Of a DNA stretch of 64,000 bases, positions 11,001-26,340 are shown piece by piece (the first letter of the stretch is position 1; each line of letters begins with the position of its first letter). The stretch spans positions 44,353 through 108,352 of the forward strand of contig CAJTUT010000002.1 in assembly GCA_910579455.1 (NCBI GenBank). Direction: 5' to 3'. The stretch is from an uncultured Bacilli bacterium (GTDB taxonomy: Bacteria > Bacillota_I > Bacilli_A > RF39 > UBA660). A program made the position numbers and the translations under genes. Below the pieces are notes generated by a model, which made no database searches, had not been told where the DNA came from, and saw nothing but the letters and a program-made list of their open reading frames with translations.

Positions 11001-14000
11001 TTGTCCTGTTATGGTTCCTTGATATATATTAATTGTGGCACTAGCACTTGAACTTACAAAAATTCCTTCAGAACCAGAGATTTCTCCATTATAAATATCT
11101 AGAGTTCCTCCATTTACAGTTATACCATTATATTTACTGATTATAGAAGGAAGTTTAGACTTATCATTTGCATCACCTATATTTACACGACCATTAGAGG
11201 TAAGCGCTGTAGACACCGATTCATAGTTTCCCTCTATCACATTAAGTATACCACTATTATTGGATATACAATATCTCCCTTTATAGGTTCCATTTTTAAT
11301 CACTAAATTACCTTTACCATTAATACTGTAATTCTGTACATCTATATTGGCATTATCTATGATTATTGTTCCGGAAGTATAAATACCGTTTTTACCTGTA
11401 GTAATGTTCACATCGACAATTTCTACATTTGCATCTGGTGACATTTTTATTGCGTAACTACCTGTCGATTGAAAATAACCACCATCAAGAATGAACTTGT
11501 CTGAACTAGATATATAAAGGGCATCACCTGAAATGGAATTAATATGAGAATTATTATCAATAGTTAATTCACCAGCATTTATATTTAACCCGTAACCACC
11601 TGTTGCATTAACATTTGAACGAATAATATTTAAATAACCACTGCTGTCTATTGTGTTTGTGTTTGTTGTCTGGCTTATAGTAATACCATCTAAACTTAAT
11701 GTAGCAGTGCTTTTGTTAGTTATTGTTTTAGATATTTTTAAGATTCCCTTTATTACACTACTATCTATTAATTTTAGATTTCCTGAATTGGTTACATCAT
11801 ATCCTGTTTCTACAGTGTAACCTGATACATCTATAATTACCTCTTTATTTTGGGCTAAATCAAGTGGATATGCTGCTTCGAAATCCCTTATTGCATAGAT
11901 CGTTCTATTTTTCTCAAAATCAGTATTCATATCTGTTATAAAGTCAATTGCATCTTGTAAATTAAAATAATAATTTGTACTAATAATTTCGTTACTATCC
12001 TCACTACTATAATTTACTGTTTTAGCTACTGCTCTTGTCAAGATTGAAGATGTCTCTTCTAAATATATTTTTTGATAACCATTACTATAATCGTGATCTG
12101 TAAACACTTCATATCCTTCTGGTTTGTTGTATACATAACCATCAAGTCCTAATTCTGCAGTTATTAATCCATCATAGAAATTCATTATTCCTTGCTGTTC
12201 TATTCCCTTTGTTGTTCCTTCTATACATGGATTATCCTTTAATACATCCCCATCATTTTCTCCTAAGGTTAATATAGAATGATTTACTATTGCCGTATTA
12301 GTTGTGTTCTTAATAGTACCATTGTTAAGAATTGTTAATGTACCATTATTTATTATTGTACTATCATTAACTCCTGTTACGGTTTTTCCATTCAAATCAA
12401 GAGTTATATCTTTTACATTTTCTACACTTTCTATTGTGTCTTTCAACATCACAATGGTATCGCCACTTTCTTTAGCAGCAGCCAATGCCTCTTCTAAACT
12501 TTTATAATATACCTTTTCTATTCTAGCAACAGCATCACTAGAACCTATTTCTGGTTTTTTTATGGTAATCGTATACTCCTTAGTTGCTGTAGAATAATTA
12601 TTAGTTGCTAAACAGGTCACTCGTATAGTTATTACAGTCCCAATAGCTAAATTGGAAAGATTTGATATTGTTACAGTTTTATCATCTAAAGTAACTTCCG
12701 CGTCAGTTTCCGTAACCTCTACTACACTAGTTTCTCCTCCATGTGAATCTACTATCATAAAAGAGTCACTATCTTGACCTTGATCAATGATTCTTTCATT
12801 AGAACTTAAATCAATATATCCCTGTGCACGTATAATGTCATAGGCCTTTCTATTATTATCTAATGTATAATTTTCAATACGTCCTCTTCCTCCTATAACA
12901 CTAGCTATAGAGACTTCTGATACATAACTACCTACATCAACTGCTTTTGACTGAATTAATTCTAATGCTTCGTTTTCTATTCGATCATTTAAACTATATT
13001 CATAATCTGGAGCTTGTCTTTCCCCATTATAAGAAAATTCAGTTGCCTCATCCCATGTAATATTCACCCTTTTAGGAGTGATAGTATGTGCAACACAACT
13101 TGATTGAAGAGGAAGACTCCCTTCCTTTCCTTCTAATACTGCTTTTACTGAATAATTACCTGCATCAATTGGAACAGATGACAACTCATTGCTACAATTT
13201 GTATCACTATAATATTGATAAGAAAGCTGTGAAGAATCTACACCTTCTGATACTTTTGCGTCATTTGCTTCTATTTCTCTACCAGTATATTCTTCAATTT
13301 TAGAATTTAAAGAGATACTTTCTGATCTTTTAAAAATTGCATATAGAGTCATATTCCCTGTAACAGTAGGAGGTGAGGTGAAACCGCTGGAAGAATCTTT
13401 ATTAGTGTGCCATCCTAAAAAGTCATATCCACTTTTTTTTGCAACTTCATCTAAATCAACAATATCCCCATATCTTAAAGTTTTATCTGGGATATTGCAA
13501 CTACCACCTGTTGTAGTACAATCATACTTTATCACATATTTTTTTTCTTTTGCCCTTGCAATTAGTTCCTTATTTCCATGAATTGTATACTCATCATTAG
13601 GATTTCCAATAACTGTATCATGATCATACCATTGACCACTAGCATAATGATCCCTACTTATAATATCTGGTAATGTCTTCGTACAATTATGACCCTCAAC
13701 AGTATAACGATCTCCATCCATTATTTGGTAGTTATCACACTGATCACTAGTAGATCCTATACTTTTAACAGACTCATCATCATTGGTATAAGAAACTTCC
13801 CATTTTCCTTTATATACCGCATAATACACTTCATTCTTTGTTGTAATGGAAGACTCAATATGACGATAATCAAATGGTCTAGTAGATAATCCATAATAAG
13901 TTCTATCATCCCCACCTTGTGATAAAAGAACCTCTTCTGGTACAGAAACTTCTTCTTCATTAATATGATAAGTCGCACTATCTTCATTTATTAACACAGA

Positions 14001-16196
14001 GTTAACCTTATTTGTTGAAAAAATGAACCTTTGTCCGTCGTTATAATAATAAAACTTAGTATCAATATTACCAGTATATACCGCATAATACACCTGATTA
14101 TTAGTAATGTTGGTATATATATCTTCCGTTTCCATATTGTTTAACTTAGAAGAAATTCCCTTATATGGTAGTCCCCTTAAGCCAATACTATTTACCACCT
14201 CATCAGAAGCTCTATAAGTACCCTTATTTTGATTATAAATTGTTTTATTTTCTGTTATAGATTCTACATTCCCATTATTATTATAATAGACCTTAATACT
14301 AATATCTTTTGAAGTAATTGCATAATATGTAGAATTATCAGATATCATTTTTTTTGTATTAATATCCCAGCTACCACTAGTATCGTTTTCATTTTGACTA
14401 AATCCTAGGATTTTATATCCTTCTCTTTCTATAGAAGGAGAAGATATTTCACAACTGGTAGCTTCTCCCCAAATCTCACAACTTTTAGTAGTAGAATCTA
14501 ATTGACTACCATTAGCAGAAAAGGTAACAGTTACTTCCTTATATACATTTACTGTAATATCAATCATAGATGAAGTAGCTGTATCTGTGACTGTTATAGT
14601 CGTAGTTCCAACAGAAACCCCCTGAATCACTCCATTCTTATCTACTGTTGCAATACCAGAATTACTACTCGCATATGATAAAGTACCCGTATTGTTGCTA
14701 ATATCCGCTTTTTTGGATTGCCCAACCTTTAAATTAATCTCATCGTCAGAAGAAGAAATATCACCAATTTTTTTTACTTCTATTTTTTTACTTACTACAT
14801 TATGGTTGGTATCATATACCCATAAATAATAAGTACCACTACTAGGAACCACGAATTCTTTATCATATTGATTCGTTACCTCCTCCAATTTAGTATAATT
14901 AGAAGTAGTTGGCATTTTATTATGATTACTTAAATAATAACCACCTATATTTCCCTCTTTTGCCATGATATGAACTGGAATATAGTACTTGTTATCCTTT
15001 CTGGTAATTGTCTCAGTAGTAATTTCAATACTTCCCTTAGGAATGATATGAACAACTCTAACAACACTATTAGTATTTCCCTTACTATCAATAACAATAT
15101 ACTTAACTGTATAAACCCCTTCAACAAAAGAGTTTACAGTTCCAACGGTAATGATCTTATCTGTCAAGACACCATCTTCTATATCCTCAGCACTAGCACC
15201 TAAATCTTGATAGGTTTCACCCTTTTTCAATTCTAAATTTGATTCCCCTACTAAATCAATAGTAGGAATGTGGTCATCAGAAGTAGGATTAACACTAACA
15301 CTTACAACTGTACACCCAATATTTCCATTTTTATCACTAACTCTATAATAAATATAGTAAATTCCTAATTTAGAAGGGTCCACATTATCAACGGTCATAG
15401 TATTTACTCCATCATAATATTCATATGTCTTAGTAACATTAGAAATATCAATACTCTGACCTGAACTATCCTTAATTTCATATGGAACAGGATCCGTAAA
15501 AGAATCATTCAAAGAGATATGAATAGACGTATTTGGAATGTTAATTACAGGGGCAACAAGATCATTAGCAGCACCGTTACTTTGTACAGCACTCACAACA
15601 ATTCTAGCGGCGTATGTTTTTCCTTGAACACTATTGTCAGCGTCCTCTCGTAGCCACATCTTAAGTTCATAATCTACCTCATCTTTTCCAGATTCTGCAC
15701 TTAAACTACCGCTGTTTAAAAGTAAACCATCAGCAAGAGATCTTGGACTTGTCCAACTCCCATCACTTAATTTAATACTATAATTAATATATTTTCTATC
15801 TAAAGTATTAGAAGATGCTGGAGTTTCTTCTAAACTAACATGATATTTAGCATCAATAGTTCCTGTATTTTTTATGGTAAAATGATAACCATCTGTACTC
15901 ATTCCTTCACTATCACTCATAGGTGCTAAGTTAGTCAAATGAATTTCATTTCCCTCCTCAAACTCAACCTTAAACGTTCCAGCCACAACTTCATGCTCAC
16001 TAGTATTATCAATTAAAACTTTAAATAATCCGTAGCTAGTGCCAATGACAGAAATTAATAAAAACATTACTAAAATAGCAATCTTTTTATATTCCCTTTT
16101 ATTCTTCCTTTTTAAATTATCATTATTGATTTCCACAGTTCTAAAACGATCACCAATTCTACCTTTATGAAAACTTTTTTTATTTTTGTTACTCAT
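8022..16196 (-). CDS. giant (2724 aa) secreted/surface multi-domain protein: N-terminal TasA/camelysin-like domain, 2x DUF5011 Ig-like, Big_2, Flg_new (Listeria-Bacteroides) repeats, >=4 parallel beta-helix modules
   Basis: One uninterrupted ORF. N-terminus: basic tail, TM, then IGTSYGLFKV...EVVAGTFKVEF..LTNLAPMSDSEG..FTIKNTGTIDAKY (TasA/CalY-like). Two DUF5011-like domains (DHIPTIDLVGESNLELKKGETYQDLGASAEDIEDGVLTD). Big_2 (TLSYASSNSGIATVDKNGVIQGVSVGTTTITV). Flg_new repeats (TVTFSANGSQLDS...EGYKILGF; KYVIKYDC...SGYDFLGWH). Recurrent beta-helix entry motifs (SLEEALAAAKESGDTIVMLKD...ITLDLNGKTV; GDTLTIIKDSK...ITLDLNGHHL) and Gly-rich G..I.N.G.L.I rungs. No C-terminal LPXTG. Confidence 0.8.
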   Translation of the reverse strand: MSNKNKKSFHKGRIGDRFRTVEINNDNLKRKNKREYKKIAILVMFLLISVIGTSYGLFKVLIDNTSEHEVVAGTFKVEFEEGNEIHLTNLAPMSDSEGMSTDGYHFTIKNTGTIDAKYHVSLEETPASSNTLDRKYINYSIKLSDGSWTSPRSLADGLLLNSGSLSAESGKDEVDYELKMWLREDADNSVQGKTYAARIVVSAVQSNGAANDLVAPVINIPNTSIHISLNDSFTDPVPYEIKDSSGQSIDISNVTKTYEYYDGVNTMTVDNVDPSKLGIYYIYYRVSDKNGNIGCTVVSVSVNPTSDDHIPTIDLVGESNLELKKGETYQDLGASAEDIEDGVLTDKIITVGTVNSFVEGVYTVKYIVIDSKGNTNSVVRVVHIIPKGSIEITTETITRKDNKYYIPVHIMAKEGNIGGYYLSNHNKMPTTSNYTKLEEVTNQYDKEFVVPSSGTYYLWVYDTNHNVVSKKIEVKKIGDISSSDDEINLKVGQSKKADISNNTGTLSYASSNSGIATVDKNGVIQGVSVGTTTITVTDTATSSMIDITVNVYKEVTVTFSANGSQLDSTTKSCEIWGEATSCEISSPSIEREGYKILGFSQNENDTSGSWDINTKKMISDNSTYYAITSKDISIKVYYNNNGNVESITENKTIYNQNKGTYRASDEVVNSIGLRGLPYKGISSKLNNMETEDIYTNITNNQVYYAVYTGNIDTKFYYYNDGQRFIFSTNKVNSVLINEDSATYHINEEEVSVPEEVLLSQGGDDRTYYGLSTRPFDYRHIESSITTKNEVYYAVYKGKWEVSYTNDDESVKSIGSTSDQCDNYQIMDGDRYTVEGHNCTKTLPDIISRDHYASGQWYDHDTVIGNPNDEYTIHGNKELIARAKEKKYVIKYDCTTTGGSCNIPDKTLRYGDIVDLDEVAKKSGYDFLGWHTNKDSSSGFTSPPTVTGNMTLYAIFKRSESISLNSKIEEYTGREIEANDAKVSEGVDSSQLSYQYYSDTNCSNELSSVPIDAGNYSVKAVLEGKEGSLPLQSSCVAHTITPKRVNITWDEATEFSYNGERQAPDYEYSLNDRIENEALELIQSKAVDVGSYVSEVSIASVIGGRGRIENYTLDNNRKAYDIIRAQGYIDLSSNERIIDQGQDSDSFMIVDSHGGETSVVEVTETDAEVTLDDKTVTISNLSNLAIGTVITIRVTCLATNNYSTATKEYTITIKKPEIGSSDAVARIEKVYYKSLEEALAAAKESGDTIVMLKDTIESVENVKDITLDLNGKTVTGVNDSTIINNGTLTILNNGTIKNTTNTAIVNHSILTLGENDGDVLKDNPCIEGTTKGIEQQGIMNFYDGLITAELGLDGYVYNKPEGYEVFTDHDYSNGYQKIYLEETSSILTRAVAKTVNYSSEDSNEIISTNYYFNLQDAIDFITDMNTDFEKNRTIYAIRDFEAAYPLDLAQNKEVIIDVSGYTVETGYDVTNSGNLKLIDSSVIKGILKISKTITNKSTATLSLDGITISQTTNTNTIDSSGYLNIIRSNVNATGGYGLNINAGELTIDNNSHINSISGDALYISSSDKFILDGGYFQSTGSYAIKMSPDANVEIVDVNITTGKNGIYTSGTIIIDNANIDVQNYSINGKGNLVIKNGTYKGRYCISNNSGILNVIEGNYESVSTALTSNGRVNIGDANDKSKLPSIISKYNGITVNGGTLDIYNGEISGSEGIFVSSSASATINIYQGTITGQSGDGIIMNNGNLNVYGGKIVGKTYGIETKNNANLVLGNKDDEVSTKSPEVIGEQYGLYSGGNGTISFYDGILKGTTAGHAGVITTLLDGYGIETGEETVDGILYSTSYLGKMTNFLKVGDEEYNTFKKALDAIDTEGTIEVIESVSIAEEVLIPNGKEITIDLGGKQLVNSKMITNEGKLRILDSSVEATGSYTNTSVVSGEYAIKSTNDLTVNSGTIKTTERASVIYLSGKGKITGGTYSAANGARVLYIATDIDITGGSYSSYSKHDTTISIATGKTVNITGVEIDRGGVTASNNANVTIENSNIYRVNPSAHERANITIKSGSYGSISSYGNTVIGDPEDATKVPNISNRITVNGGTLDIYNGEISGSEGIFVSSSASATINIYQGTITGQSGDGIIMNNGNLNVYGGKIVGKTYGIETKNNANLVLGNKDDEVSTKSPEVIGEQYGLYNGGNGTISFYDGALSGQIAGYYGAISKIPNDYVIDDDTQIIDEVMYHRNTLKATEYFVQNGEMQYKSLKTAVLESQNGDTLTIIKDSKVFEEVNTAGKNITLDLNGHHLRLNQAIMNEGTLSIRDNADQGKLSISTNSIIISNKGNLVLEDILLENLTTNYYLITNFANASIEANGTSFKGYSGIHNYAGANLVANDITLDVISSGIYNYSNCKISNSTLNKSDKKTGGYLFYNQTSEDHEALLRNNTYRVSGYYFGYRDIVNNSGELTIQGGTMYSTIDNNNQNAILNLLNTNIIYSYRTSDSDPIIRHRKGQLNIEGGSISSDGDITQYVGIVLSSDASIKNVAITSNTTVNSADATAIVINDNSNINIENTDFNIENFTSNYGISTQAAANLTLKNTNIYLRENTNVFSGRNITSAGIYSSNSDSNIKLESGRIDVHGRMAYGIYIDSGTVIMGIKDGSGTNYANVSIENPLIQATATVTGIGVIKGNGIFKYYDGRIIGSTNAKPETTTEVEPGYEVRFYTDEETGYEYCILEFME
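9613..9943. repeat. 331-bp intragenic direct repeat, copy A (about 99.7% identical to 10795..11125)
   Basis: Direct comparison of the sequence: 9613-9943 and 10795-11125 (offset 1182 bp) differ at a single position. Both encode ...EQYGLY(S/N)GGNGTISFYDG / ITVNGGTLDIYNGEISGSEGIFVSSSASATINIYQGTITGQSGDGIIMNNGNLNVYGGKIVGKTYGIETKNNANLVLGNKDDEVSTKSPEVIG. Confidence 0.9.
10795..11125. repeat. 331-bp intragenic direct repeat, copy B
   Basis: See copy A. Flanking sequence diverges immediately (9944 g versus 11126 c). Confidence 0.9.
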
Positions 16197-16227
16197 AAGT
16201 TCACATCCTACTAATTTGTTCTATTTT

Positions 16228-16256
16228 CTATTAACATTTTACAATATTTTTTGCAA
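16228..16256 (-). promoter_or_regulatory. candidate sigma-A promoter for the giant gene (-35 TTGCAA at 16251-16256; 17-nt spacer; extended -10 TGtTAATAG at 16228-16236 on minus)
   Basis: Motif match read from the reverse complement; located about 30-60 nt upstream of the ATG at 16196 and just downstream of the terminator of the preceding gene. Confidence 0.3.
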
Positions 16257-16272
16257 ATAGGAAAGAAAAATT

Positions 16273-16307
16273 TCAAAAAAAGAAGTGATGACAAACTTAT
16301 CATCACT
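16273..16307 (-). terminator. rho-independent terminator (stem agtgatga/tcatcact, 8-nt loop, U-tract on minus strand)
   Basis: Inverted repeat 16284-16291 / 16300-16307 preceded on the plus strand by an A-rich run 16275-16283. It terminates the 113-aa gene and insulates the giant gene. Confidence 0.5.
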
Positions 16308-16374
16308 TTCTAACCTGTAATGGTACAAAACATTAAAAGAAATATCATTATCTCCTTTTCAGGAATGAATCATC

Positions 16375-16716
16375 TTATTTTCCTGGCTTAAAAGCATGTA
16401 CTATAACCTTAGTTTTATCCTTACTTAACTGTGAAGTATACTCATAAAAATCATTCATTCCTTCAGAAGTTCCCTGTTCTAAATATTGAAGACACTCATC
16501 CAAATGTTGGTCAATAAACTCTCTAATTTGCAAATTATCCACATTATCTTTATTCGGTTTAGAAATTTGAAATGCATTAGGAACAGATAATTTTGTTATA
16601 TCATACTTCTGATCTCCAACCCTAAAATAATAAACAACATTATCTTCTGATTTTTCTGGTGAAGTTTCCCCAGAAATCATCTGATATAAGTCAACTACCT
16701 CAATTGTATTATCCAT
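16375..16716 (-). CDS. hypothetical acidic small protein
   Basis: 113-aa ORF with good coding appearance and no recognisable motif. Confidence 0.45.
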   Translation of the reverse strand: MDNTIEVVDLYQMISGETSPEKSEDNVVYYFRVGDQKYDITKLSVPNAFQISKPNKDNVDNLQIREFIDQHLDECLQYLEQGTSEGMNDFYEYTSQLSKDKTKVIVHAFKPGK

Positions 16717-17087
16717 ATAACCCCTCCTTTTGACTACATATTATAACATAATATTCCATTATTTGCAAGATAAATAGAATAACTCAAGCTACAAACGAAA
16801 AGTTATGGAGTTCTAGTACAAACAAATGAGTGATTCGTTTTAAAGAAAAAATTGTCCCTTATCCTCCTCTTAATTCTAACTCTTCTTCATTATTCTATCT
16901 CTCATACTACACTAATATAACTAATAAGAGATAAATAATCATAATAAACTTTCTTCAGTTTTAATAGTTAAATATACATCTACTATATACAATAACAAGA
17001 AAATGGATAAACAATAATAAAACAAATCGATATGGAATTTATACTAGAAGATATTGCTCCATATTTTCTTTAGAATTTCTATCACGA

Positions 17088-19139
17088 CTATTTTTCTTTA
17101 ATAATATTCTTACTACAGAAATAAGTTATTAAGAAATAGCCTCCATAAATCATTATGATAAAGCAAGCTGTCATAATAATAGACGGTAATAATCCCTTTG
17201 TACCAAATGTTTCTAAAAAATAAGTACAAAACTTAATTCCAAAAATGGAATGAATTATAGCAAGGATCAATGGCATAAGAAAGAAAATTCCTATTTGTCT
17301 AAATAATGCCCTGTTAATTAGTTTTTCATCAGTACCTATTTTTCTTAACATCTTGAATCTCTCTTTGTTATCACTAGATTCTGATAATTCCTTTAAAGCA
17401 AGAATTGCAGCACTGGATATTAAGAAAATAATCCCTAGATATAGTCCGATAAAAGTAACCATTCCTCCAAGTCCCAAGCAGGCTTCTGCAATATCTAATC
17501 TAGTATTACTACTTGGAATAATATATTGATCATTATCTTGAACAAAGTGAAGTTTTTCCTCAAACTCCTGTTTTGCCTCTTTTGTCCTTGCCTTATAATT
17601 AGCCGTCAGTATACTACTAACACGATACTCTTCTTTTACTACGTGGTCAGGGACAACAAAGAATCCCATATTAGTATGATTACCAGACATTTGAAGAAAA
17701 CCATCTTGACATACTTTATATTTCGGACTCAAAACATGATCAAAAATGCGAATTGAAATACCCTGTTTTAGAGGAATATCCCGTATTTTTGACATAGATT
17801 CAAGATTGGCAACCACTATATATTCGTCATCATTCAAATGATAAGTCTTTTTACCAAAAAGCTTTGCAAGCTTATTATAATCGCTAATTCGAACAATATT
17901 TTCTCTCTGATCATAGTGCACAAATCTATGTTTTTCTTGTAATAGTTCAAAACTACTTCCAAGTGAATCTTTAAAAGTAAACTCAGAAGATTCATAAACA
18001 GTAACCGTTACAATATCTTTTAAATCGTCCTCTATATCAACACCACTCCGTTTTAAAGACTCCATAATTGTTAAATTAGAATTTTTCACCATTTGTTCTG
18101 TATAATAATCTGATATATCACTTGATTGTAAATTAATCACTCGATAAAGTTGAATATCCGCAGGAGCAAGTTCATTTAGATTTTTTGTCATAGAATTTTT
18201 TATTGATAAAGCACTGGATAAAACACACAAGGTTACAAATAGCATAATACAAATAATAGACATTGAAAATACAGTCGTATTTACTTTTGAACTAATCTGT
18301 CTTAAAGTAAAGCTATTTAACCCTTTATAATAAAGATTCTTCACTGCCATAACAATCTTTAGTAAAAGTCCTGATAAAGACCAAAAAATAAAGAAGGTTG
18401 AAAGGCATCCCAAGGCAATAGGAATATAAATTTCATTAGCATTGTGTATAGTATCGATACCAGCAGTTACCATGTAGTATGCGTATCCCAGAAAAATACT
18501 AGATATAATAAATATAATAACACAAAGCCATGGATTTTTAAATTTAACCCTTTCAGATTTTTTATTAAAATGTAATAAATCAATTAGCTTACATCTACCA
18601 ACACTAATGGCATTAAAGATGATAACGAATAAATACATAATACTAAAATACAAAAGACACTTCATACTAGCTTCTAGAGAAAAGATAAACTCAAATCTTT
18701 CTACATCCGCCTCAAACATACCTGCTACTAATATACTCATGAATTGGGATAAAATAAATCCTAACCCAAGCCCTACAATTAAAGAAATAATTCCAATTAT
18801 TAATGTCTCTAAAAACAGAATCAATGAAATTTTCCGTTTGCTCATACCAAGTGTTAAATAGATGCCAAATTCCTTATTTCTTCTTTTCATTAAAAATCTG
18901 GATGCATAGATAATCAGAAATCCCAAAATAAAAGAAACAAAGACACTAACTCCTGCCAACATATTAGTCATTAGTTTTATAATCTCCTTGGTTGATTTTG
19001 TAACATTCATCATAACAGTTTGAGAGTCTATCGCATTAAATACATAAAAAATAGCAACTCCCAATATCAGTGTAAAAAAATAAATCGCATAATCTTTTAT
19101 ACTTCTTATAATATTTTTAACAGAAAGTTTAAAGAGCAT
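17088..19139 (-). CDS. ABC transporter permease, FtsX-like, BceB-type (10 TM with a large extracellular domain between TM7 and TM8)
   Basis: 683 aa with four N-terminal TMs, a long hydrophilic domain (~aa 300-520), then further C-terminal TM clusters. It overlaps the upstream ATPase gene and follows an RR-HK pair, the classical BceRS-BceAB arrangement. Confidence 0.75.
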   Translation of the reverse strand: MLFKLSVKNIIRSIKDYAIYFFTLILGVAIFYVFNAIDSQTVMMNVTKSTKEIIKLMTNMLAGVSVFVSFILGFLIIYASRFLMKRRNKEFGIYLTLGMSKRKISLILFLETLIIGIISLIVGLGLGFILSQFMSILVAGMFEADVERFEFIFSLEASMKCLLYFSIMYLFVIIFNAISVGRCKLIDLLHFNKKSERVKFKNPWLCVIIFIISSIFLGYAYYMVTAGIDTIHNANEIYIPIALGCLSTFFIFWSLSGLLLKIVMAVKNLYYKGLNSFTLRQISSKVNTTVFSMSIICIMLFVTLCVLSSALSIKNSMTKNLNELAPADIQLYRVINLQSSDISDYYTEQMVKNSNLTIMESLKRSGVDIEDDLKDIVTVTVYESSEFTFKDSLGSSFELLQEKHRFVHYDQRENIVRISDYNKLAKLFGKKTYHLNDDEYIVVANLESMSKIRDIPLKQGISIRIFDHVLSPKYKVCQDGFLQMSGNHTNMGFFVVPDHVVKEEYRVSSILTANYKARTKEAKQEFEEKLHFVQDNDQYIIPSSNTRLDIAEACLGLGGMVTFIGLYLGIIFLISSAAILALKELSESSDNKERFKMLRKIGTDEKLINRALFRQIGIFFLMPLILAIIHSIFGIKFCTYFLETFGTKGLLPSIIMTACFIIMIYGGYFLITYFCSKNIIKEK

Positions 19140-19896
19140 CGTTCAAATCACCACCAAGCATTGTGACAACATCAATTATCTTGTCAAAAAATTCACGCCT
19201 TTCATCATCACCTCTATGAATTTCATTAAAAACTTTTCCATCTTTAATAAAAATAACACGAGTTGCATAACTAGCTGTAAAGGCATCATGGGTAACCATT
19301 AAAATAGTTGCTTTCAACTCCTTATTTAAAAACTGAAATCTCTCTAATAACATTTTAGCAGATTTAGAATCCAAGGCTCCTGTTGGTTCATCCGCAAGTA
19401 CTAACTTTGGATTGGTAATAATTGCCCTAGCAGATGCCACTCTTTGTTTTTGGCCACCTGACATTTGATAGGGATATTTATTTAATATATCCTGAATATT
19501 TAATTCCCTAGCTACCTCTTTAATCCGTTCATCAATCTGATTTGCCTTTACATTTTGAATAGACAATGCTAATGCAATATTTTCATAGGCAGTTAAAGTA
19601 TCCAAAAGATTAAAATCCTGAAAGATAAATCCTAACTCTTCTCGTCGAAATTTATTAAGATGATTGCCTCGTAATTTGGTAATATCCTCTCCTCCAACAT
19701 AAATATGACCAGATGTTACCTTATCAATAGTTGATATTAAATTTAGTAATGTCGTTTTTCCACTACCACTAGCTCCCATAATAGCAACAAATTCTCCCTT
19801 TTCCACCTCAAAGGAAAGATTATTGATTGCCTTCGTTAAGCTAGACTTATTTCCATAGTATTTTTCAATTTCTTCTATTCTTAAAACTTTTTCCAT
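19129..19896 (-). CDS. ABC transporter ATP-binding protein (BceA-type)
   Basis: Walker A GASGSGKTTL, signature LSGGQKQR, Walker B LVLADEPTGALD, H-loop VTHD. The start at ATG 19896 (MEKVLRIEEIEKYYG) has the RBS AAAGGAGA; the track start at 19920 is probably too far upstream. Confidence 0.85.
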   Translation of the reverse strand: MEKVLRIEEIEKYYGNKSSLTKAINNLSFEVEKGEFVAIMGASGSGKTTLLNLISTIDKVTSGHIYVGGEDITKLRGNHLNKFRREELGFIFQDFNLLDTLTAYENIALALSIQNVKANQIDERIKEVARELNIQDILNKYPYQMSGGQKQRVASARAIITNPKLVLADEPTGALDSKSAKMLLERFQFLNKELKATILMVTHDAFTASYATRVIFIKDGKVFNEIHRGDDERREFFDKIIDVVTMLGGDLNDAL

Positions 19897-19983
19897 ACTA
19901 TTTCTCCTTTCTATCACCATTTTAGTAAAAAATATGTCAAATGTCCCTCGTTTAATATTACCGAATATTACAATTTTGTAATT

Positions 19984-21003
19984 TCATCGCTCCGTATGAT
20001 AAAAATCATTGTTTCCAAAAATAATTTTAACTTCTGTACCCTCATGATAAACGGATGAAATTTCTAAAATATGTCCCATTTTCTTACATAATTTATCTAC
20101 TATATATAATCCCATTCCTGTAGACTTTGTTTTCCTCCTCCCATTTTCTCCTGTAAAAGACTTTTTGCATACATAATTTAAATCACCTTTTTGTATTCCT
20201 ATTCCATTATCTACAATATTTAAAATAGTTTGATCTTTCTGAATTTCAGCAAATATTCTTATATATGATTTTCTTTTCTCATCCCTATATTTAATGCTAT
20301 TATTGATAATCTGATTTAAAATAAACTCTAACCATTTCATATCACTATAAACTTCAATGTTTCCCAAATCCACTTCTAAATCAATTTTACTTTCTAATAA
20401 ATCATCTTTATTTTTGATTAATACATTACCGACCATTTTCTCTAAGGATACTTTTCTAATCACAAAGTCCTCCTCTGTATAATTGCTTCTTACATAATAT
20501 AATACCTGATCAATATAATTATCCAGTCTTCTAACTTGTTCAAGAAATGATTTATGAAGTTTTTCCTTATGATTATGACAAAGTAGTATCAAACTAGAAA
20601 TAGGTAGTTTTACTTCATGAATCCACATTTCTATATACTCCTTAAAATCTTCTATATCCTTTTTATTCTTTTGTACATTTTCTGACATAGATCTATCAAT
20701 TTCATATAAATTATGATATAAAATCTCTCCTTCATAAAAACTAGGCTTTGAAATAGTCTCCAATACTAAGTACTTTTGATCTAGTAACTCTATATTACTA
20801 ATAAGCTCATCATAAAATCGTTTTTTTCTAATAAAATTAATACCAAAAAGCAGAATATGCATCATAAAAAAGATAAAGGTAATAGAAAAAATTAAAGAAA
20901 TATTTATGTTAAAAACAAGAAGTAATAATAATATCACAGCATAAGAAAAGAAAATTAATAAAATAGATAAATAGTGATCCACAATGTACTTACTTAATTT
21001 CAT
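19984..21003 (-). CDS. sensor histidine kinase, intramembrane-sensing BceS-type (two N-terminal TM helices, no extracellular domain)
   Basis: 339 aa; two TMs in the first ~60 aa; an H-box-like region (IHEVKLPIS), an N-box/G-boxes (NSIKY..., DNGIGI, GMGL) and a HATPase_c C-terminus. Confidence 0.8.
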   Translation of the reverse strand: MKLSKYIVDHYLSILLIFFSYAVILLLLLVFNINISLIFSITFIFFMMHILLFGINFIRKKRFYDELISNIELLDQKYLVLETISKPSFYEGEILYHNLYEIDRSMSENVQKNKKDIEDFKEYIEMWIHEVKLPISSLILLCHNHKEKLHKSFLEQVRRLDNYIDQVLYYVRSNYTEEDFVIRKVSLEKMVGNVLIKNKDDLLESKIDLEVDLGNIEVYSDMKWLEFILNQIINNSIKYRDEKRKSYIRIFAEIQKDQTILNIVDNGIGIQKGDLNYVCKKSFTGENGRRKTKSTGMGLYIVDKLCKKMGHILEISSVYHEGTEVKIIFGNNDFYHTER

Positions 21004-21662
21004 AATAAAATATATCCCTGTCCCTTTCTAGTTTCAATCACATTACAGTATCCCAATTCACTCAATTTACTTCTCAACCGACTAATATTAACTGTTAATG
21101 CATTATCATTAATGTACTCATCGTTATTCCATAAATCTGTCATTAAAACATCTCGGGTTACAATCTTTCCTTGATTATTTAATAAATAACTAAATACAAT
21201 CATTTCGTTTTTGGTTAATTCTATTTCCTCCTCATTCTTTTTTAAAATCCCTTTACTTGGAAAAAATTCTAATTCTCTATATTTGTAAGAGTCAACTTTT
21301 TGTTCCATCCTTCTCAATACATTTTGAATTCTTAAAAGTAAAATAGTTGGGTTATATGGTTTAGTAATATAATCATCTGCCCCATAAGACATAGATAGAA
21401 CCTCATCCAATTCACTAACACGACTAGTAACCATAATAATGGGAATATTCGTCTTCTTTCTAACTTCCCTCAACAAAGTTTCTCCATTTAAAAAAGGAAT
21501 GTTAATATCTAATAAAACTAAATCAGCATTACTATTTATAATTTCCTCAAAAGAATTGGAAAAATTATTTAAGATGTTTACAACATAACCTGAATGTTCT
21601 AATAGATTCTTTAACTCTTTGCAAATTGTTTGATCGTCCTCTACTATCATAATTCTTTTCAC
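21000..21662 (-). CDS. OmpR-family response regulator (BceR-type)
   Basis: Receiver motifs MIVEDD..., LVLLDINIP, SELDEVL plus a winged-helix C-terminus (LTKNEMIVFSYLL..., RLRSKL). The track ORF (start 21752) carries a hydrophobic N-terminal artefact; the likely start is GTG 21662 or ATG 21650, after a GGTGGA RBS. Confidence 0.8.
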   Translation of the reverse strand: MKRIMIVEDDQTICKELKNLLEHSGYVVNILNNFSNSFEEIINSNADLVLLDINIPFLNGETLLREVRKKTNIPIIMVTSRVSELDEVLSMSYGADDYITKPYNPTILLLRIQNVLRRMEQKVDSYKYRELEFFPSKGILKKNEEEIELTKNEMIVFSYLLNNQGKIVTRDVLMTDLWNNDEYINDNALTVNISRLRSKLSELGYCNVIETRKGQGYILL

Positions 21663-21957
21663 AAAACATTCCACCTTTAATAATAGTATATCATAAAATA
21701 AAACTTTAAAAAGAATAGAAAAATTTGGGTCCAATTTTTTACAAAAAATCATTATAGAATGATGACAATTTTAAAAGTTTAGTAAAATATTATAAATTTC
21801 TTCTCAATATTTACCCATATCAATATAGAACATTTTAAGAATGTTCTTTTCATGTGATTTAATTAGGCAATTTCTAAAGTTTTAGCTCTAATTGTTTGGA
21901 TTTCCTTCAATTTTTCCTAACAAAACAGCCTCACATACATGATATCCAGATTTTATT

Positions 21958-23040
21958 TTATGTCAGTTTCCCTGGCATATTTATATTACCATAAAAAAGA
22001 CTTTTGACAGGTTTTCTATTTAAAGTTCGAATAGTTCGAACAGATTTCCCAATGGTACCCTTAAGGATGAAGAATAATAACTTTTTTAGAGTAAAGTCTC
22101 GTTCTATTTTTGATAAATTTGCTTTTAATAAAGGTATCATACTAGCAGTTGCACTAATACAGCTAACTTCAATAGAATTTAAAAAATCTAAATTTTCTAG
22201 GTAATTAGTATGTTCACCGCATACTCCTATCTCAATTTTTTTATTTCCAACTTTGGCCCTATAAATAGATTCAATAATTTTATCTTTTGTATCATCATTT
22301 AAATAATTAAAATCATTATCTTGTTTATCGCGTGATTTTTTTGTTATACTTTCTTTTAAATAGTGTAATCTAAAGGAAATAAAATCAACTAATTTTGAAA
22401 TTCTATCAGCGTTATAAATAGATTGCACATTTTCTATCATAGCACCAATTTATAGTTTATATTATGTATTTTATTAACATTTACCCATTGCTTATATTTT
22501 TCTTCCTCGGGTGCACTATTAATGTAAGCTTCTCTAGCTGTTAAAGTACCATCTATCACTTTTTTTTACATCTTCTGAATTAAAACCTAAAATTGCCATA
22601 GAACTAACAAATAAATCAATTTTTTGTTATTCTATTAAATTTTCCCATTTTTCAGAATATTTTAACCTAGGCTTATAATATTCATTGTTTGCCATTTCCA
22701 TTATAGAAATATTTGAATATTCGTTTTCATTATCAATACTAAACATAATTGCATAGTTAAAATTTAATTTATCACTTATAATATCACCAACAATTAAACC
22801 CAATTGCGTATAAACTTGACTTTCTGAATGATTAGGATATCCCCTAAATCACCAAACGCATCCCTTATCTATTTTAAATGTACACTAACTATCACTGCTA
22901 TAAGTATAAAGTCTAGGAAACAAATCACTTTCAAAATCAAAAAAATCTAATTTTTTTCATGCAAATCAAATGCAAAAGAAATTAAATTCACAGGTTCTAA
23001 TTCAGTATTTTTACAGTTTTTTAATAGCATATTTTTATTC
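21958..23040 (-). pseudogene. decayed gene of unknown function (about 360 codons broken by >=3 frameshifts/stops)
   Basis: Hand translation of the minus strand from 23035 downwards gives MLLKNCKNTELEPVNLISFAFDLHEKKLDFFDFESDLFPRLYTYSSDS* ... RGYPNHSESQVYTQLGLIVGDIISDKLNFNYAIMFSIDNENEYSNISIMEMANNEYYKPRLKYSEKWENLIE* ... and then runs into the 160-aa ORF 21958..22440. The text is protein-like but is interrupted. Confidence 0.45.
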
Positions 23041-23195
23041 ACCTAAATTATAATACTATTGATTTTGTCAATATACAAGTGTGTTTTACTACACTGTCAC
23101 ATTTTATCACAAAACATTGTATAAAGAACAAATATTATAGGAACATTTAATAAGTTGGGTGGAGCCAAACTTCATAAAAGAAGGGAGGCGATGCA

Positions 23196-23279
23196 ATGAA
23201 CAAGAAAGATTTACAAATCTTTGCTCTAGTAATTATTATCTTCCTTTTACTATTATTGTTATTTATAACTCTAATATAA
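23196..23279 (+). CDS. 27-aa hydrophobic peptide ORF (MNKKDLQIFALVIIIFLLLLLLFITLI) with a strong RBS
   Basis: AAGGGAGG sits 7 nt upstream of the ATG. It has a single predicted TM helix and is the only well-signalled plus-strand ORF in an otherwise minus-strand region. It is below the size cutoff of the supplied ORF track. Confidence 0.3.
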   Translation: MNKKDLQIFALVIIIFLLLLLLFITLI

Positions 23280-23380
23280 AAGAAATCCACCTAACTCATC
23301 CAATGATTTAGGTGGTAACTATTAATATGGCAAACACTCAACATCGGCATATTGAATGTTCCTCTTTATTTTATGTTTTT

Positions 23381-23929
23381 TTAATCATTTGTTTCATAGT
23401 AGTAAGATGTTTCAATTCCCTTAAAAACACTCTCTAAACTTAAATCATCTGTTAAATTATTTTCTATTAAAGTTTTAATTTCTAAAGTGTTAATAGGGCT
23501 TCTTTCCATAGCCTGTAGATATAATTTTTTATCTATATTTTCCCAATTGACAATCTTGTTTAAATTTTTCTTTAATATTAAATCTAACCAAATTCTTGTA
23601 CTGCGACCATTTCCCTCTAAAAATGGATGAGCAATATTCATTTCCACATACTTATCTATAATTTCATTTAAATTTGTTTCACTCATTGTTTCAATTTTCT
23701 TTAACATTTCTTCTAAATATAGAGAGTTTCCAAATCTAAAATTACCTTTTGAAATATTTTCTTTTCTAATATCACCTGCAAAATCGTATAAACCATCAAA
23801 TAGATATTTATGAATTTGTTGTAATCCTTTTATTGTACCAACTTCAATATTATCTATATTGCCACTTGAAAATAAGTCTTTTGCATTTTCTAAACTTTTT
23901 TTATCTATTTCGTTCATAAAATCCACCAC
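23381..23929 (-). CDS. Fic family protein (Fic/Doc fold, NmFic-like single-domain class)
   Basis: The canonical Fic motif [12 protein letters not shown] (HxFx(D/E)GNGRxxR) occurs in a 182-aa protein. The C-terminal ...[10 protein letters not shown] resembles, but does not perfectly match, the class III inhibitory (S/T)xxxE(G/N) helix. Confidence 0.8.
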
Positions 23930-24290
23930 TTTTTACGAATATTTCTATTGCTTTTATACTTCTATATTCTAGCATAAAATCGTAGATTTTACAATACACG
24001 ATCAAGATTAAAGGTATAAAGATATCTCTAATTCTTGCGAATTAAATACTGTATTTTCTTTAAGATATCATCCAAATATCTTTTTCTTTTTTGCCTCAAT
24101 ATTCATTTCGTTTTCTTTTAATTGTCATAGACTTGCTAGGAAATATGTACCTAATATTATCATTATAGTATATTATTTCTTTATTTTCGTCTTATCAGTA
24201 AAATGTATAATAGGAGATAATGCTTGATTACCTACAATATCATTTGCAAAGAAATAATTGAATGAGAAATTGCATTAAAACTACTACTAT

Positions 24291-24581
24291 TTATACTACA
24301 TCTATAGTTTCTTCAAATCTATCTCTAATACTTATATTCTGCACTTTATTATAATTTTCACTTATTTTAGATAATCTAACTTTCTCCATATATTCTTTTT
24401 GTTCTTTTTCTTCTTGCTCTTTAGTAATACTATAGAAATAATCTTCAATAATTTTAAACTGACTTTCTATTTTTTCTAATTCCATTGAATATCTTTCTTC
24501 ACTCATTGGTTTTAATTTATGCTTGTCGATTAATTTTGTTTTATTACTATAAGACTCCGCTACTATAATTACAATTAACAA
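24291..24581 (-). CDS. hypothetical small coiled-coil protein
   Basis: 96-aa ORF rich in K/E; no motif recognised. Confidence 0.35.
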   Translation of the reverse strand: MLIVIIVAESYSNKTKLIDKHKLKPMSEERYSMELEKIESQFKIIEDYFYSITKEQEEKEQKEYMEKVRLSKISENYNKVQNISIRDRFEETIDVV

Positions 24582-24658
24582 ATCTTATTTCTACACTTTG
24601 GTCTATAAAGTAATCAGCCATTTTGATATTACAAGTCTTTTTATATACTTTCTTTTTC

Positions 24659-24958
24659 TTAGCCATTATATTCACCCGATACAATTGCTTTTAATAAAGT
24701 AATTAATTTACTAATGGTTATAGGCATTGTTCTATCATATAGAAATAAATTCTCTTTATCAAAATATAAAACTAATAATTTATAAGATTTAATTCTAATA
24801 ATAACTTTATGCGGTTCAATAAAACTGATATTAGTATTATCTAAGACAATTATCTTCCCCTCTATAAATTCACACTTAGCACTATTCATAGCACAAGTAA
24901 TTTCTATTCTTTTCTCAAAGTTCTCATCTTTTATGAGATTTTTCATCTTAAAATCCAT
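24659..24958 (-). CDS. hypothetical small protein
   Basis: 99-aa ORF immediately downstream of the tRNA terminators. Confidence 0.4.
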   Translation of the reverse strand: MDFKMKNLIKDENFEKRIEITCAMNSAKCEFIEGKIIVLDNTNISFIEPHKVIIRIKSYKLLVLYFDKENLFLYDRTMPITISKLITLLKAIVSGEYNG

Positions 24959-24974
24959 ACTTTTTCACTCCTTT

Positions 24975-25012
24975 TTTGTTAAAACAAAAAACCGTGAAAT
25001 CCCTTATAAAAT
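24975..25012 (-). terminator. rho-independent terminator (stem aaccgtga/tcacggtt, followed by a T-run on minus)
   Basis: The inverted repeat ccgtga...tcacgg is followed on the plus strand by aaaaaacaaaaaag at 24969-24982, which is a U-tract on the minus strand. A second hairpin (ctccaa/ttggag, 25034-25049) lies just 3' of the tRNA. Confidence 0.45.
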
Positions 25013-25061
25013 CACGGTTTAATCTATGTTTTAACTCCAAAAGTTGGAGCGTATTCACATA

Positions 25062-25138
25062 TGGTAGCGACGGAGGGAATCGAACCCCCGACCTTTCGGG
25101 TATGAACCGAACGCTCTAGCCAGCTGAGCTACATCGCC
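25062..25138 (-). tRNA. tRNA with anticodon CAT (elongator tRNA-Met, or tRNA-Ile2 if lysidinylated), CCA encoded
   Basis: The reverse complement folds as a cloverleaf: acceptor GGCGATG/CGTCGCT, D-arm GCTC-AGCTGGCTA-GAGC, anticodon stem TTCGG / loop TTCATAC / CCGAA, variable AGGTC, T-arm GGGGG-TTCGATT-CCCTC, discriminator A, CCA. Confidence 0.85.
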
Positions 25139-25548
25139 ATAAATAATAAAGCATATTCATAATAACATAATTAGTTTAATTTGACAATACCTTATTTTCC
25201 GAAAACTCTAATTTAGTATCCTTGCTATACCTAAGGATTTGCATATCGTAACCAATACAAAACGATTGTGTGGAACTATATCATATAGAACCAGTAGAAA
25301 TAACAACCGTTATTTTAACCTAGAAAATAATATGTTCATTATGATATTAAATTTCACCAAATATAAAATATAAGAGTCATTTAAGATAGAATAAAATTAT
25401 AACTAGTACTACTATAAAAAATAATATACTTCAAATAGCCACAATAAAACATTAGTTACCCTTGTCAATCTATTATAATCTACTAAAAGACTTATTTCAG
25501 GAAAAAGGCGAATATAAAACAACAGATTAAATAAAAGTTATTTCTCTT

Positions 25549-26340
25549 TTATCTATAAAACAGAAGAAAAAATTTAGCTAAAATTCCTTGCATTACAGGA
25601 ACCCTAATTTTAAAAGATGGTGACTTACTTTCAATTTCTCTAACTACTTTGTAAATTAGTCCTTTAGTGCACCCTTTCTCAATTAAAATAAACATATTTC
25701 TTTGAATTTTATTGATGCTATCTTTATGATCATAAATTTTGTTATTCTTTTTTAAAAATTTGTTCTTATTATCGATCATAACTTGATTAAATCCTGTTTT
25801 ATAGGCACCAGGTTCTATTAAAGAAATTGTAACATTCTTATCCCTTAAATATTTTAACTCTTCCTTTAAAGTAAAAGCTAACATAGAAATAGCTGCCTTG
25901 CTAGATGTATAACATCCCAAAAATGGAATAGGCAACATACTAGCAATAGAGGAAGTAACAAAAATTTTAGCCTTCTCTCCTCTTTCTTTTTTCATTTGAT
26001 AAAATTCCTGTAATAAAGAAAAGGAGGCAAAAATATTTGTTTCATAATTATCCCTTAAAACATCAATATCCATATATAATAAAGAACCTCCGTTTCCAAT
26101 TCCAGCATGATTAACTAAACAATCAATATTTAGAGTATGAATTAATTTTCTATCTTCCTTTACCCTAATATCCATTTTAAAGCATAAGATACCCAACTTC
26201 ATCTCTTTAAGTTTCTCTTTAACCTGTTCCAACTGCTTTTTAGTATGAACAGTAATGTATACTGTATGTCCTTTTTTTGATAACGCTAAAGCCAAGTCAA
26301 AACCAATTCCACTAGCAGCACCCGTTATTAAGACCTTCAT
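25549..26340 (-). CDS. SDR-family oxidoreductase (short-chain dehydrogenase/reductase)
   Basis: Rossmann motif MKVLITGAASGIGFDLA and catalytic Y..xK (YTSSKAA). The start at ATG 26340 has the RBS AGGGTGAAGAGG; the track start at 26388 adds a spurious hydrophobic leader. Confidence 0.8.
   Translation of the reverse strand: MKVLITGAASGIGFDLALALSKKGHTVYITVHTKKQLEQVKEKLKEMKLGILCFKMDIRVKEDRKLIHTLNIDCLVNHAGIGNGGSLLYMDIDVLRDNYETNIFASFSLLQEFYQMKKERGEKAKIFVTSSIASMLPIPFLGCYTSSKAAISMLAFTLKEELKYLRDKNVTISLIEPGAYKTGFNQVMIDNKNKFLKKNNKIYDHKDSINKIQRNMFILIEKGCTKGLIYKVVREIESKSPSFKIRVPVMQGILAKFFLLFYR

Follow-up and report, generated by a model that had tools for sequence, protein, structure and literature searches.

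What has come to lie behind a tRNA gene when a short run of small and broken genes follows it, and how did it get there? The question is raised by a locus within a 64,000-nt stretch of DNA from an uncultured Bacilli bacterium (the whole stretch is referred to as the window), in which G+C is ∼26% and nearly all genes are on the minus strand. Behind a tRNA-Met(CAU) gene the locus carries an intact gene for a Fic AMP-transferase (fic), a pseudogene relic and several small open reading frames (ORFs); downstream of the relic are a Bce-like two-component system and ABC transporter. A preliminary description, made from the sequence of the window, had taken it for a decayed mini-islet next to the tRNA. 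We find that the region is a genuine strain-variable islet, which is decaying, lacks an integrase and abuts the tRNA 3' end. It is probably what decay has left of one or two integrative mobilizable elements (IMEs) that inserted right after the CCA of tRNA-Met and that carry a still-selected gene of the NmFic type.

Relatives with conserved flanks were sought by using as bait the SDR gene that lies just upstream of tRNA-Met; contigs and loci compared with the window are numbered L001–L233. The closest of these relatives, L107, comes from a sister lineage whose core proteins are 84–97% identical to those of the window, with a synonymous divergence (dS) of 0.3–1.2. L107 and the window have the gene order SecDF-RelA-Dtd-...-response regulator-histidine kinase-SDR-tRNA-Met, then bceRSAB, in common; the tRNA-Met genes are 100% identical and both flanks show 85–89% nucleotide identity. 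Between the flanks the sequences diverge from the first base past CCAT up to 21699, in the bceR promoter. The slot in L107 holds 1.24 kb of unrelated genes, encoding a Bro-N protein and an 82-aa ORF, and none of the window's islet content. L110 and L111 keep SDR-tRNA-Met, yet have other genes downstream. The islet thus extends over 21700–25061 (3.36 kb) and starts exactly after the CCA of tRNA-Met. The preliminary description, which had begun it at 21958, made it too short; its suggestion of a comparison with relatives has been followed, and the islet survives that comparison. The limits of the islet and of its variable part are as follows.

25062–25138, minus strand: tRNA-Met(CAU), called by ARAGORN and Rfam; left boundary (attL side) of the islet.
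23049–23146, no strand: start of the strain-variable distal half; L001 diverges here and five metagenome contigs break exactly at 23146.
21700–21760, minus strand: right islet boundary; L107 homology resumes at 21699, in the −10 region just upstream of the bceR start.

The islet differs also between strains. L001, a contig of a metagenome-assembled genome (MAG) of the same species, is 99.6% identical over the segment aligned to window positions 33917–23049; past that segment it carries a gene for a 267-aa MBL-fold protein where the window has the pseudogene relic. At 23146, where the two islet alleles begin to diverge, the length of an A-run is polymorphic and contigs from five samples end, which suggests that the two alleles coexist in many samples.

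tRNA-Met(CAU) was the sole tRNA found by ARAGORN and Rfam, and Rfam returned this tRNA only from the islet (21000–26000). It is not an initiator tRNA, because its first pair is G1–C72, and it is preceded by a promoter-like TTGTCA-17-TATTAT at 25187–25159. Deviant base composition was not seen, G+C being 23–27% in the islet vs 24–31% in the flanks. The ORF list and Pfam gave no recombinase or relaxase ORF in the interval, in keeping with the earlier remark that no integrase remains. The direct repeat of the tRNA 3' end by which the islet was to be delimited does not exist in the window: the 25-nt tRNA 3' end has no second copy there, even with three mismatches allowed, and a repeat search of 16000–26000 returned AT-rich chance repeats only. 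Serine recombinases exchange strands at a 2-bp core and, needing only this 2-bp crossover, leave no long tRNA direct repeat; the lack of one therefore fits a serine-recombinase element. What is left at the two ends of the islet can be compared with elements of this kind.

24976–25061, minus strand: post-CCA trailer with two hairpins, CTCCAACTTTTGGAG plus an intrinsic terminator, recognized by comparison with L019 and L016.
24659–24958, minus strand: orf99, intact, 99 aa, with a strong ribosome-binding site (RBS), delineated by homologues, a hidden Markov model (HMM) and AlphaFold.
24291–24684, minus strand: remnant of a 269–272-aa partner gene, comprising ORFs of 45 and 96 aa, collinear with L021 and L023.
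22053–22087, minus strand: right end of an element, truncated (...CCTTAAGGGTACCA), with homology to those of serine-recombinase elements arranged in tandem (...TTTAGGGCACCA).
22022–22052, minus strand: element left-end trailer (TTGGGAAATCTGTTCGAACTATTCGAACTTT) with the hairpin GTTCGAA-CTA-TTCGAAC, recognized by a 24-mer match.

The trailer beside tRNA-Met matches the tRNA-Trp trailer of L019 at ∼92% identity, judged by eye within the aligned block, and is similar to that of L016, and its layout is that of the left-end trailers of the orf99-type elements described below. The protein encoded by orf99 is 50–57% identical to ORFs at the same position in L021, L023, L034, L027 and L035, and its counterparts in L031 and L026 are frameshifted or truncated. 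HMMER over 1.84 billion representative proteins yielded a small, unannotated family of 81 clusters, and no relatives were found in viral contigs; the AlphaFold model (pLDDT 90) has no convincing structural neighbour. The start codon of the partner gene, at 24666, has an 8-nt overlap with the orf99 stop, which is also seen in L021. It has lost ∼128 codons internally (residues ∼6–133, including a WHIHVIV motif), and one frameshift splits the rest; orf99 and the partner remnant are nevertheless homologous to, and collinear with, their counterparts in L021 and L023. What had been described as two tiny ORFs of no known relation are thus a member of a real family, in the case of the 99-aa ORF, and, in that of the 96-aa ORF together with the 45-aa one, the remains of a 269–272-aa gene.

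The intact partner (L021 6455–7264, L023 1776–2594) has a conserved W-H-x-H-hydrophobic motif and a GRPRK stretch. An assignment as HUH nuclease, prompted by the WHIHVIV motif, was dropped when a PDB profile search and tblastn against plasmid and phage collections came back empty; there was no match for the partner in Pfam, PHROGs, PADLOC, PDB sequences or the plasmid and phage collections. Likewise orf99, the 269-aa partner, the 27-aa ORF and P0121, the latter two being introduced below, received no assignment from Pfam, NCBIfam, PHROGs or PADLOC.

Towards the other end of the islet, 72 nt (22017–22088) have an 85% identical counterpart in L001, directly behind the MBL gene, with surroundings that are not shared. 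Here the 3' half of an element right end (...GGGTACCA) is joined to a left-end trailer, after which no orf99 or recombinase follows. Recognizable element ends are therefore kept on both sides: tRNA-CCA, two-hairpin trailer and orf99 on the left, as in L021 and L023, and ...GGGTACCA plus trailer on the right.

The first 24 nt of this second trailer, ATCTGTTCGAACTAYTCGAACTTT (window 22022–22045), recur in one viral contig and in at least 120 contigs from metagenomes, every one of them low in G+C. The 24-mer lies exactly 7 nt past the CCA of a tRNA or tmRNA gene in 72 contigs (74 when offsets of 6–8 nt are counted), the adjacent gene being tRNA-Leu in 31, tmRNA in 24, tRNA-Thr in 14, tRNA-Arg in four and tRNA-Cys in one. 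A gene of the orf99 family follows the 24-mer at 22–141 nt in 38 loci (HMM E-values 1e-29 to 3e-5, mostly ≤1e-20); of the 32 loci that could be evaluated, 15 have a gene for a large serine recombinase next. Complete elements (L119, L177, L222) show the Pfam domains Resolvase, Recombinase and Zn_ribbon_recom, and then a Mob_Pre (MobV) relaxase. The order of parts in elements elsewhere is tRNA-CCA, hairpin trailer, terminator, orf99, large serine recombinase, MobV relaxase, cargo and a right end ...(C/T)ACCA; in tandem arrays it is the right end of the previous element (...GGGCACCA), not a tRNA, that abuts the next trailer. A near-complete example at tRNA-Trp is L023, which reads tRNA-CCA, trailer-orf97 ... 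recombinase-right end ...GTGCCA, native trailer-fic. By this gene content, orf99-type loci are small IMEs. An IS200/IS605-like reading, which a hairpin 11 nt past a fixed target might suggest, was rejected since the downstream genes encode a serine recombinase and a MobV relaxase. The same 24-mer stands behind several tRNA species and tmRNA in different contigs (L113–L233); the explanation would be either a single recombinase family able to use many tRNA ends with CACCA in common or an exchange of trailers between elements by recombination.

The right ends have a form of their own. They look like small genes, with an extended −10 (TGnTATAAT), a short hairpin and then a 9–12-bp hairpin that ends in single-stranded (G)CACCA, or in GTGCCA in the element at tRNA-Trp. 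The stem covaries between elements (L115, L117, L119, L133, L137, L157, L197 and L222, ∼80 nt before the core; L023 9860–9926), and the whole resembles a tRNA acceptor/T-arm minihelix, as judged from visual covariation and single-sequence folds. RNAalifold on the right ends did not recover the helix seen by eye; single-sequence folding gave it in 12 of 21, with modest z-scores. Rfam on five element loci found tRNAs only and did not recognize the right ends.

The same kind of element is met where relatives keep fic. The Fic protein has orthologues at 80–94% identity in ∼50 species-level MAGs from low-GC gut bacteria, which carry the labels Bacilli or Tenericutes, Ca. Onthousia, Ca. Coprosoma or Mycoplasma sp. 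CAG:776 (one genome per species was scanned), and homologues at 65–72% identity across phyla. In most of the ∼50 species fic starts 38–126 nt past tRNA-Trp(CCA). A gene for a SleB-like hydrolase lies on the other side of this tRNA in 43 loci, and its product, at 58–76% identity across species, is far less conserved than Fic. The gap between tRNA-Trp and fic holds in several species a terminator only, or nothing, and has no room for a promoter (e.g. L041 5934–6001, L052 5962–6001), so that fic would there be expressed by read-through from the tRNA promoter. Larger gaps hold inserted genes: orf99 alone in L034, L027 and L035; orf99, the 269-aa gene and a KAP NTPase gene in L021; in L023, an element of 8.6 kb with a large serine recombinase gene at its end; and in L017, an element with a tyrosine integrase that repeats 45 nt of the tRNA 3' half. 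L019, where the site seems empty, keeps the RBS and start of a degenerate orf99 and is therefore a deletion derivative. Fic in relatives is a conserved neighbour of tRNA-Trp rather than island cargo.

Genes for ToxN, Abi_2 and Macro-domain proteins lie nearby in L019 and L023. The Bro-N gene of L107 (11515–12351) matches the PADLOC defence candidate PDC-S13, and the KAP NTPase gene of L021 (7446–9392) matches PDC-S49, which suggests that tRNA-adjacent slots behave like small defence islands.

In the window, fic and its signals are arranged as follows.

23940–24113, minus strand: region upstream of fic, shared with L019 and L021, with a promoter-like TTGTAA-17-TGcTAGAAT at 23994–23966.
23381–23917, minus strand: fic, intact, 178 aa, NmFic-type class III Fic AMP-transferase, assigned by Pfam, NCBIfam, PDB match and dN/dS.
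23273–23314, minus strand: putative fic terminator, hairpin CCACCTAA...TTAGGTGG plus T-tract, read from the sequence and not listed by the terminator scan.

The preliminary description had given a standalone, 'class-III-like' Fic protein of 182 aa with an intact catalytic motif. Standalone it is, and the motif, of the type HxFx(D/E)GNGRxxR, is present (Pfam Fic, E = 8.6e-11). The length follows from the ORF at 23381–23929; translation probably starts at the ATG at 23917, giving 178 aa, as in every homologue. The protein is class III proper: it matches the NCBIfam NmFic equivalog NF046029 with 275.5 bits (cut-off 230) over residues 2–175 of 178, and phmmer aligns it end to end with PDB 3S6A (E = 8.6e-80), to which it is ∼70% identical; 2G03 was also matched (∼1e-79). 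Ahead of the gene, the extended-TG promoter-like site lies within ∼360 nt of non-coding DNA.

Selection on fic is purifying. The ratio of non-synonymous to synonymous divergence (dN/dS) is 0.04–0.12 against 11 relatives and 0.04–0.09 for the closer ones; the gene is functional and tightly constrained. Recent horizontal transfer was considered and rejected, dS to the nearest relatives being ∼0.5.

The C-terminus, SYYYETND, had been called an imperfect inhibitory motif, with the question of whether the enzyme is constitutively active. Set against (S/T)xxxE(G/N), S-Y-Y-Y-E is present and the last position is T instead of G/N; the SYYYE core, aligning with S182–E186 of NmFic, is intact. Nearly all Fics of the gut clade end in SYYYET, a few having M, I, N or V after the Glu, and nearly all outgroup Fics end in SYYYEGY. 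Because it is common to ∼50 species under strong purifying selection, the E-T ending would be a fixed trait of the lineage, not a sign of decay or de-repression.

In NmFic the off-state depends on the conserved Glu of the C-terminal helix and on tetramerization; auto-AMPylation of Tyr183 frees the enzyme, which AMPylates GyrB (PMC12894286). The Ser, the Tyr183 equivalent and the Glu are present in the Fic of the window, and the Tyr188 equivalent is absent. By analogy, we infer an auto-inhibited enzyme, not a constitutively active one. It would be held off by its own C-terminal helix, with the Glu of SYYYE blocking productive ATP binding, and oligomerization may add to the inhibition; auto-AMPylation of the Tyr beside the Ser would free it to modify GyrB, its presumed target. 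Both the target and the control by auto-AMPylation and tetramerization are predicted solely from the 70% identity to NmFic.

Downstream of fic, on the same strand, lies what had been described as a single broken gene of ∼360 codons. It is non-functional over 21958–23042, with two frameshifts and three in-frame stops (TAG, TGA, TAA), and consists of the remains of two genes.

22470–23042, minus strand: relic of gene 1, a 348-aa protein without known domain; residues 9–189 survive, with two frameshifts and three stops.
22102–22461, minus strand: relic of gene 2, a 296-aa standalone PEP-utilizers_C protein; residues 173–290 survive at 63% identity.

A homology search of 5.8 billion proteins with the frameshift-corrected translation, as had been proposed, gave P0121 (348 aa) as the sole homologue of the first protein; window positions 23009–22470 correspond to its residues 9–189. 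On its own contig (L106 791–2739) P0121 is followed by a 296-aa standalone PEP-utilizers_C protein, so that the intact form is a two-gene unit. The reading frame of the gene 2 relic runs on to 21958. In it FISFGLNDLTE of the intact homologue has become FISFRLHYLKE, with four residues changed and the GxNDL motif ruined; the Cys of CGEH is kept. A complete phosphoenolpyruvate-binding TIM barrel with GxNDL and Cys is not retained, the Pfam match covering profile positions 180–292 of 293 only. The relic is thus two neighbouring genes that were fused by a deletion of ∼1 kb and then broken further. Use of the mollicute code 4 was rejected as the source of the apparent stops, as all three stop codons occur in frame and the other genes of the window are intact under table 11.

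The hydrophobic peptide that had been noted behind a strong RBS lies between fic and the relic, on the opposite strand.

23181–23279, plus strand: 27-aa hydrophobic ORF (MNKKDLQIFALVIIIFLLLLLLFITLI) at 23196–23279, with the RBS AAGGGAGG at 23181–23188, 7 nt before the ATG.

A 7-mer Shine–Dalgarno sequence (AAGGAGG or AGGGAGG) with an ATG 4–10 nt further on occurs five times in the window; the other four instances start real genes, and the translation signal of the 27-aa ORF is for this reason probably genuine. The stop codon is overlapped by the T-tract of the convergent fic terminator, the fic 3' end being all that overlaps it. No match to Pfam or to a known toxin family was found.

How, then, did the islet arise? 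On the reading that we favour, the window would hold a decayed composite element that arrived by serine-recombinase integration and has since lost its recombinase and relaxase; the parts left would be the left trailer, the intact orf99, its gutted partner, the fused PEP-utilizer two-gene relic, the right-end/left-end junction and the small peptide ORF. The Fic module would have travelled with element remnants from the tRNA-Trp site to the tRNA-Met site in this lineage, because fic is a fixed tRNA-Trp neighbour in ∼50 species and elements of this kind insert in the gap between tRNA and gene; the location of fic in this genome is known from the window only, that is, from the islet copy. Several facts weigh against this history. 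The window encodes no large serine recombinase or relaxase, so that it can only be a decayed derivative of an IME, and the link rests on the homology of orf99 and of the 65-nt junction. The trailer beside tRNA-Met differs in sequence type from that at 22022–22052, the partner of orf99 (269 aa, of no family) is not a serine recombinase, and the right end is only the 3' half of the hairpin of complete elements. Fic lies inside the islet here and outside the elements in relatives, which demands an extra, unobserved step of capture or rearrangement. Finally, the dS of ∼0.5 for Fic points to a divergence at least as old as that between this species and L107; the transfer must therefore be old, or the history differs from the one proposed. 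A recombination hot spot or small defence slot behind the tRNA, filled by homologous recombination, with Fic as selected cargo and the likeness to elements due to drifted fragments, would account for the missing recombinase and for the contig breaks at 23146 in five samples, which suggest allelic exchange. It would also fit the defence candidates: Fic matches PADLOC PDC-S04 over its full length (E = 1.5e-85), as the Bro-N protein in the same slot of L107 and the KAP NTPase of L021 match theirs. We nevertheless consider it unlikely: PDC-S04 has never been validated and was negative in one direct test of defence activity (bioRxiv 10.1101/2024.12.20.629700), the islet boundary falls exactly at the CCA end, and both the place of orf99 and the att-like junction agree in every point with the element family. 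It is, besides, compatible with descent from IMEs. A fuller version of that descent can be offered tentatively and with considerable doubt, namely that the islet is a relic of an undescribed family of small mobilizable elements of low-GC gut Bacilli, whose serine recombinases target the CCA of many tRNA and tmRNA genes, whose orf99 (a fold without solved relative) would be the missing directionality or regulatory factor, and whose right ends would combine a promoter with a covarying, tRNA-like acceptor/T-arm minihelix ending in CCA.

Two further alternatives concern single genes of the islet. That the frameshifts are assembly errors and the gene is intact, a possibility the preliminary description had allowed for, has in its favour the general error rate of metagenome assemblies and nothing more. 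Assemblies from other samples agree with the window, L005 at 99.96% over 22996–23042 and L006 at 100% over 22634–23042, and so cover the first frameshift and the TAG and TGA stops, with 21958–22633 lying outside their cover. Three different in-frame stops accompany the frameshifts, ∼1 kb is missing in comparison with the two-gene homologue and gene 2 has four residues of its catalytic motif changed. Since independent assemblies match and the deletion of ∼1 kb is internal, sequencing error is an unlikely cause of the breaks, and an intact gene, which has next to no chance of being correct, is already refuted by these results. The other alternative would explain the retention of the segment by a functional pair of Fic and the 27-aa ORF, the latter being a type I toxin or small membrane protein with an mRNA that runs into the 3' end of fic, or else acting on Fic as its membrane partner or regulator. 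The strong Shine–Dalgarno sequence and ATG speak for such a pair, as does the convergent arrangement with a shared terminator hairpin. ORF and RBS are moreover intact in three alleles (variants Q7L, and Q7L with I24T), and the ORF stays linked to fic in L001 although the downstream genes differ. Homologues were found only in the same species (L001, L003–L006 and L008–L010) and in none of the ∼100 loci of other species (L011–L105); no relative of the ORF stands beside fic in any of ∼50 related species, from which it follows that Fic can do without it. A promoter scan of the ORF's strand gave no sigma-70-like site ahead of it. Each of the two coding polymorphisms is non-synonymous, and the differences of L009 and L010 from the window all fall within 23179–23266, in the ORF and its leader and none in fic, which looks more like weak constraint. 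We therefore regard a functional pair as very unlikely; the 27-aa ORF itself might encode a small membrane protein or a type I toxin, or might have arisen by chance.

Two observations concern the genes beyond the right boundary. The 250-aa response-regulator ORF listed at 21000–21752 probably starts later, at a GTG near 21660 (VKRIMIVEDD...), which fits the 220-aa orthologue in L107 and places the islet boundary just upstream of the start. Downstream of the Bce-like transporter genes is an ORF of 2724 aa (8022–16196).

As it stands, the finding is mostly ordinary: a decaying tRNA islet with a Fic protein from a structurally solved family. The islet is nevertheless a worked example of how serine-recombinase elements leave no tRNA repeat, and island finders based on such repeats would miss islets of this kind. 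The analysis also exposes a family of small elements at tRNA and tmRNA CCA ends, with a conserved trailer, a conserved first gene and seemingly tRNA-like right ends. If the fuller version given above were true, a right end would rebuild the target site for the next element and would restore transcription into the downstream host gene, for example a tRNA-linked fic. There is demand in genome engineering for large serine recombinases, as tools, whose attachment sites are defined and conserved, and the small protein associated with these recombinases could be a directionality factor. Finally, the ∼50 species with an NmFic orthologue right behind tRNA-Trp offer a natural system for asking what class III Fic proteins do.

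Set beside known systems, the Fic protein is closest to NmFic of Neisseria meningitidis (PDB 2G03, 3S6A, 5CGL). The two are ∼70% identical over the full length, have the same catalytic loop and the same C-terminal inhibitory helix, Ser-Tyr-Tyr-Tyr-Glu, and are of similar size, 178 aa vs 188–194 aa in the PDB chains of NmFic. They differ in that the inhibitory Glu is followed by Thr, not Gly/Asn, and in that the tail is cut to three residues, so that Tyr188, the second auto-modification site of NmFic, has no counterpart; both differences are common to the whole low-GC gut clade. PADLOC PDC-S04, whose model is matched over its full length, is by comparison a prediction from genomic neighbourhoods, and showed no defence activity in the one published test. 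The 27-aa ORF resembles type I toxins and small hydrophobic peptides of the Fst, TxpA and BsrG type in being short, with a basic N-terminus and then one hydrophobic helix, and in its strong RBS and convergent arrangement with a shared terminator. It differs in that Rfam identified no antisense RNA gene within 21000–26000, no promoter was found and homologues are confined to the species, so that the resemblance is one of form only.

As a whole, the islet shares with classical tRNA islands of P4-like tyrosine integrases its location at a tRNA 3' end, its variable cargo and its decay. A true example of such an island exists at the tRNA-Trp/fic site, in L017 with its 45-nt repeat; the window, in contrast, has neither a tRNA-derived direct repeat nor a tyrosine integrase. 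The nearer likeness is to decayed IMEs. Decayed elements that keep their att sites (CIMEs), accretion in tandem and very short repeats in IMEs with serine recombinases have all been described (Guedon et al., 2017; PMC5704250), and the orf99-type elements resemble them in that related elements stand in tandem at a single site and in that repeats are very short, as goes with a serine recombinase as integrase. Site-specific IMEs with serine recombinases usually insert inside dispensable protein genes and disrupt them (PMC5704250). The orf99-type elements, by contrast, insert precisely past the CCA of tRNA and tmRNA genes and carry a conserved small first gene, orf99, that is undescribed; precise insertion after CCA may be a new variant of integration site.

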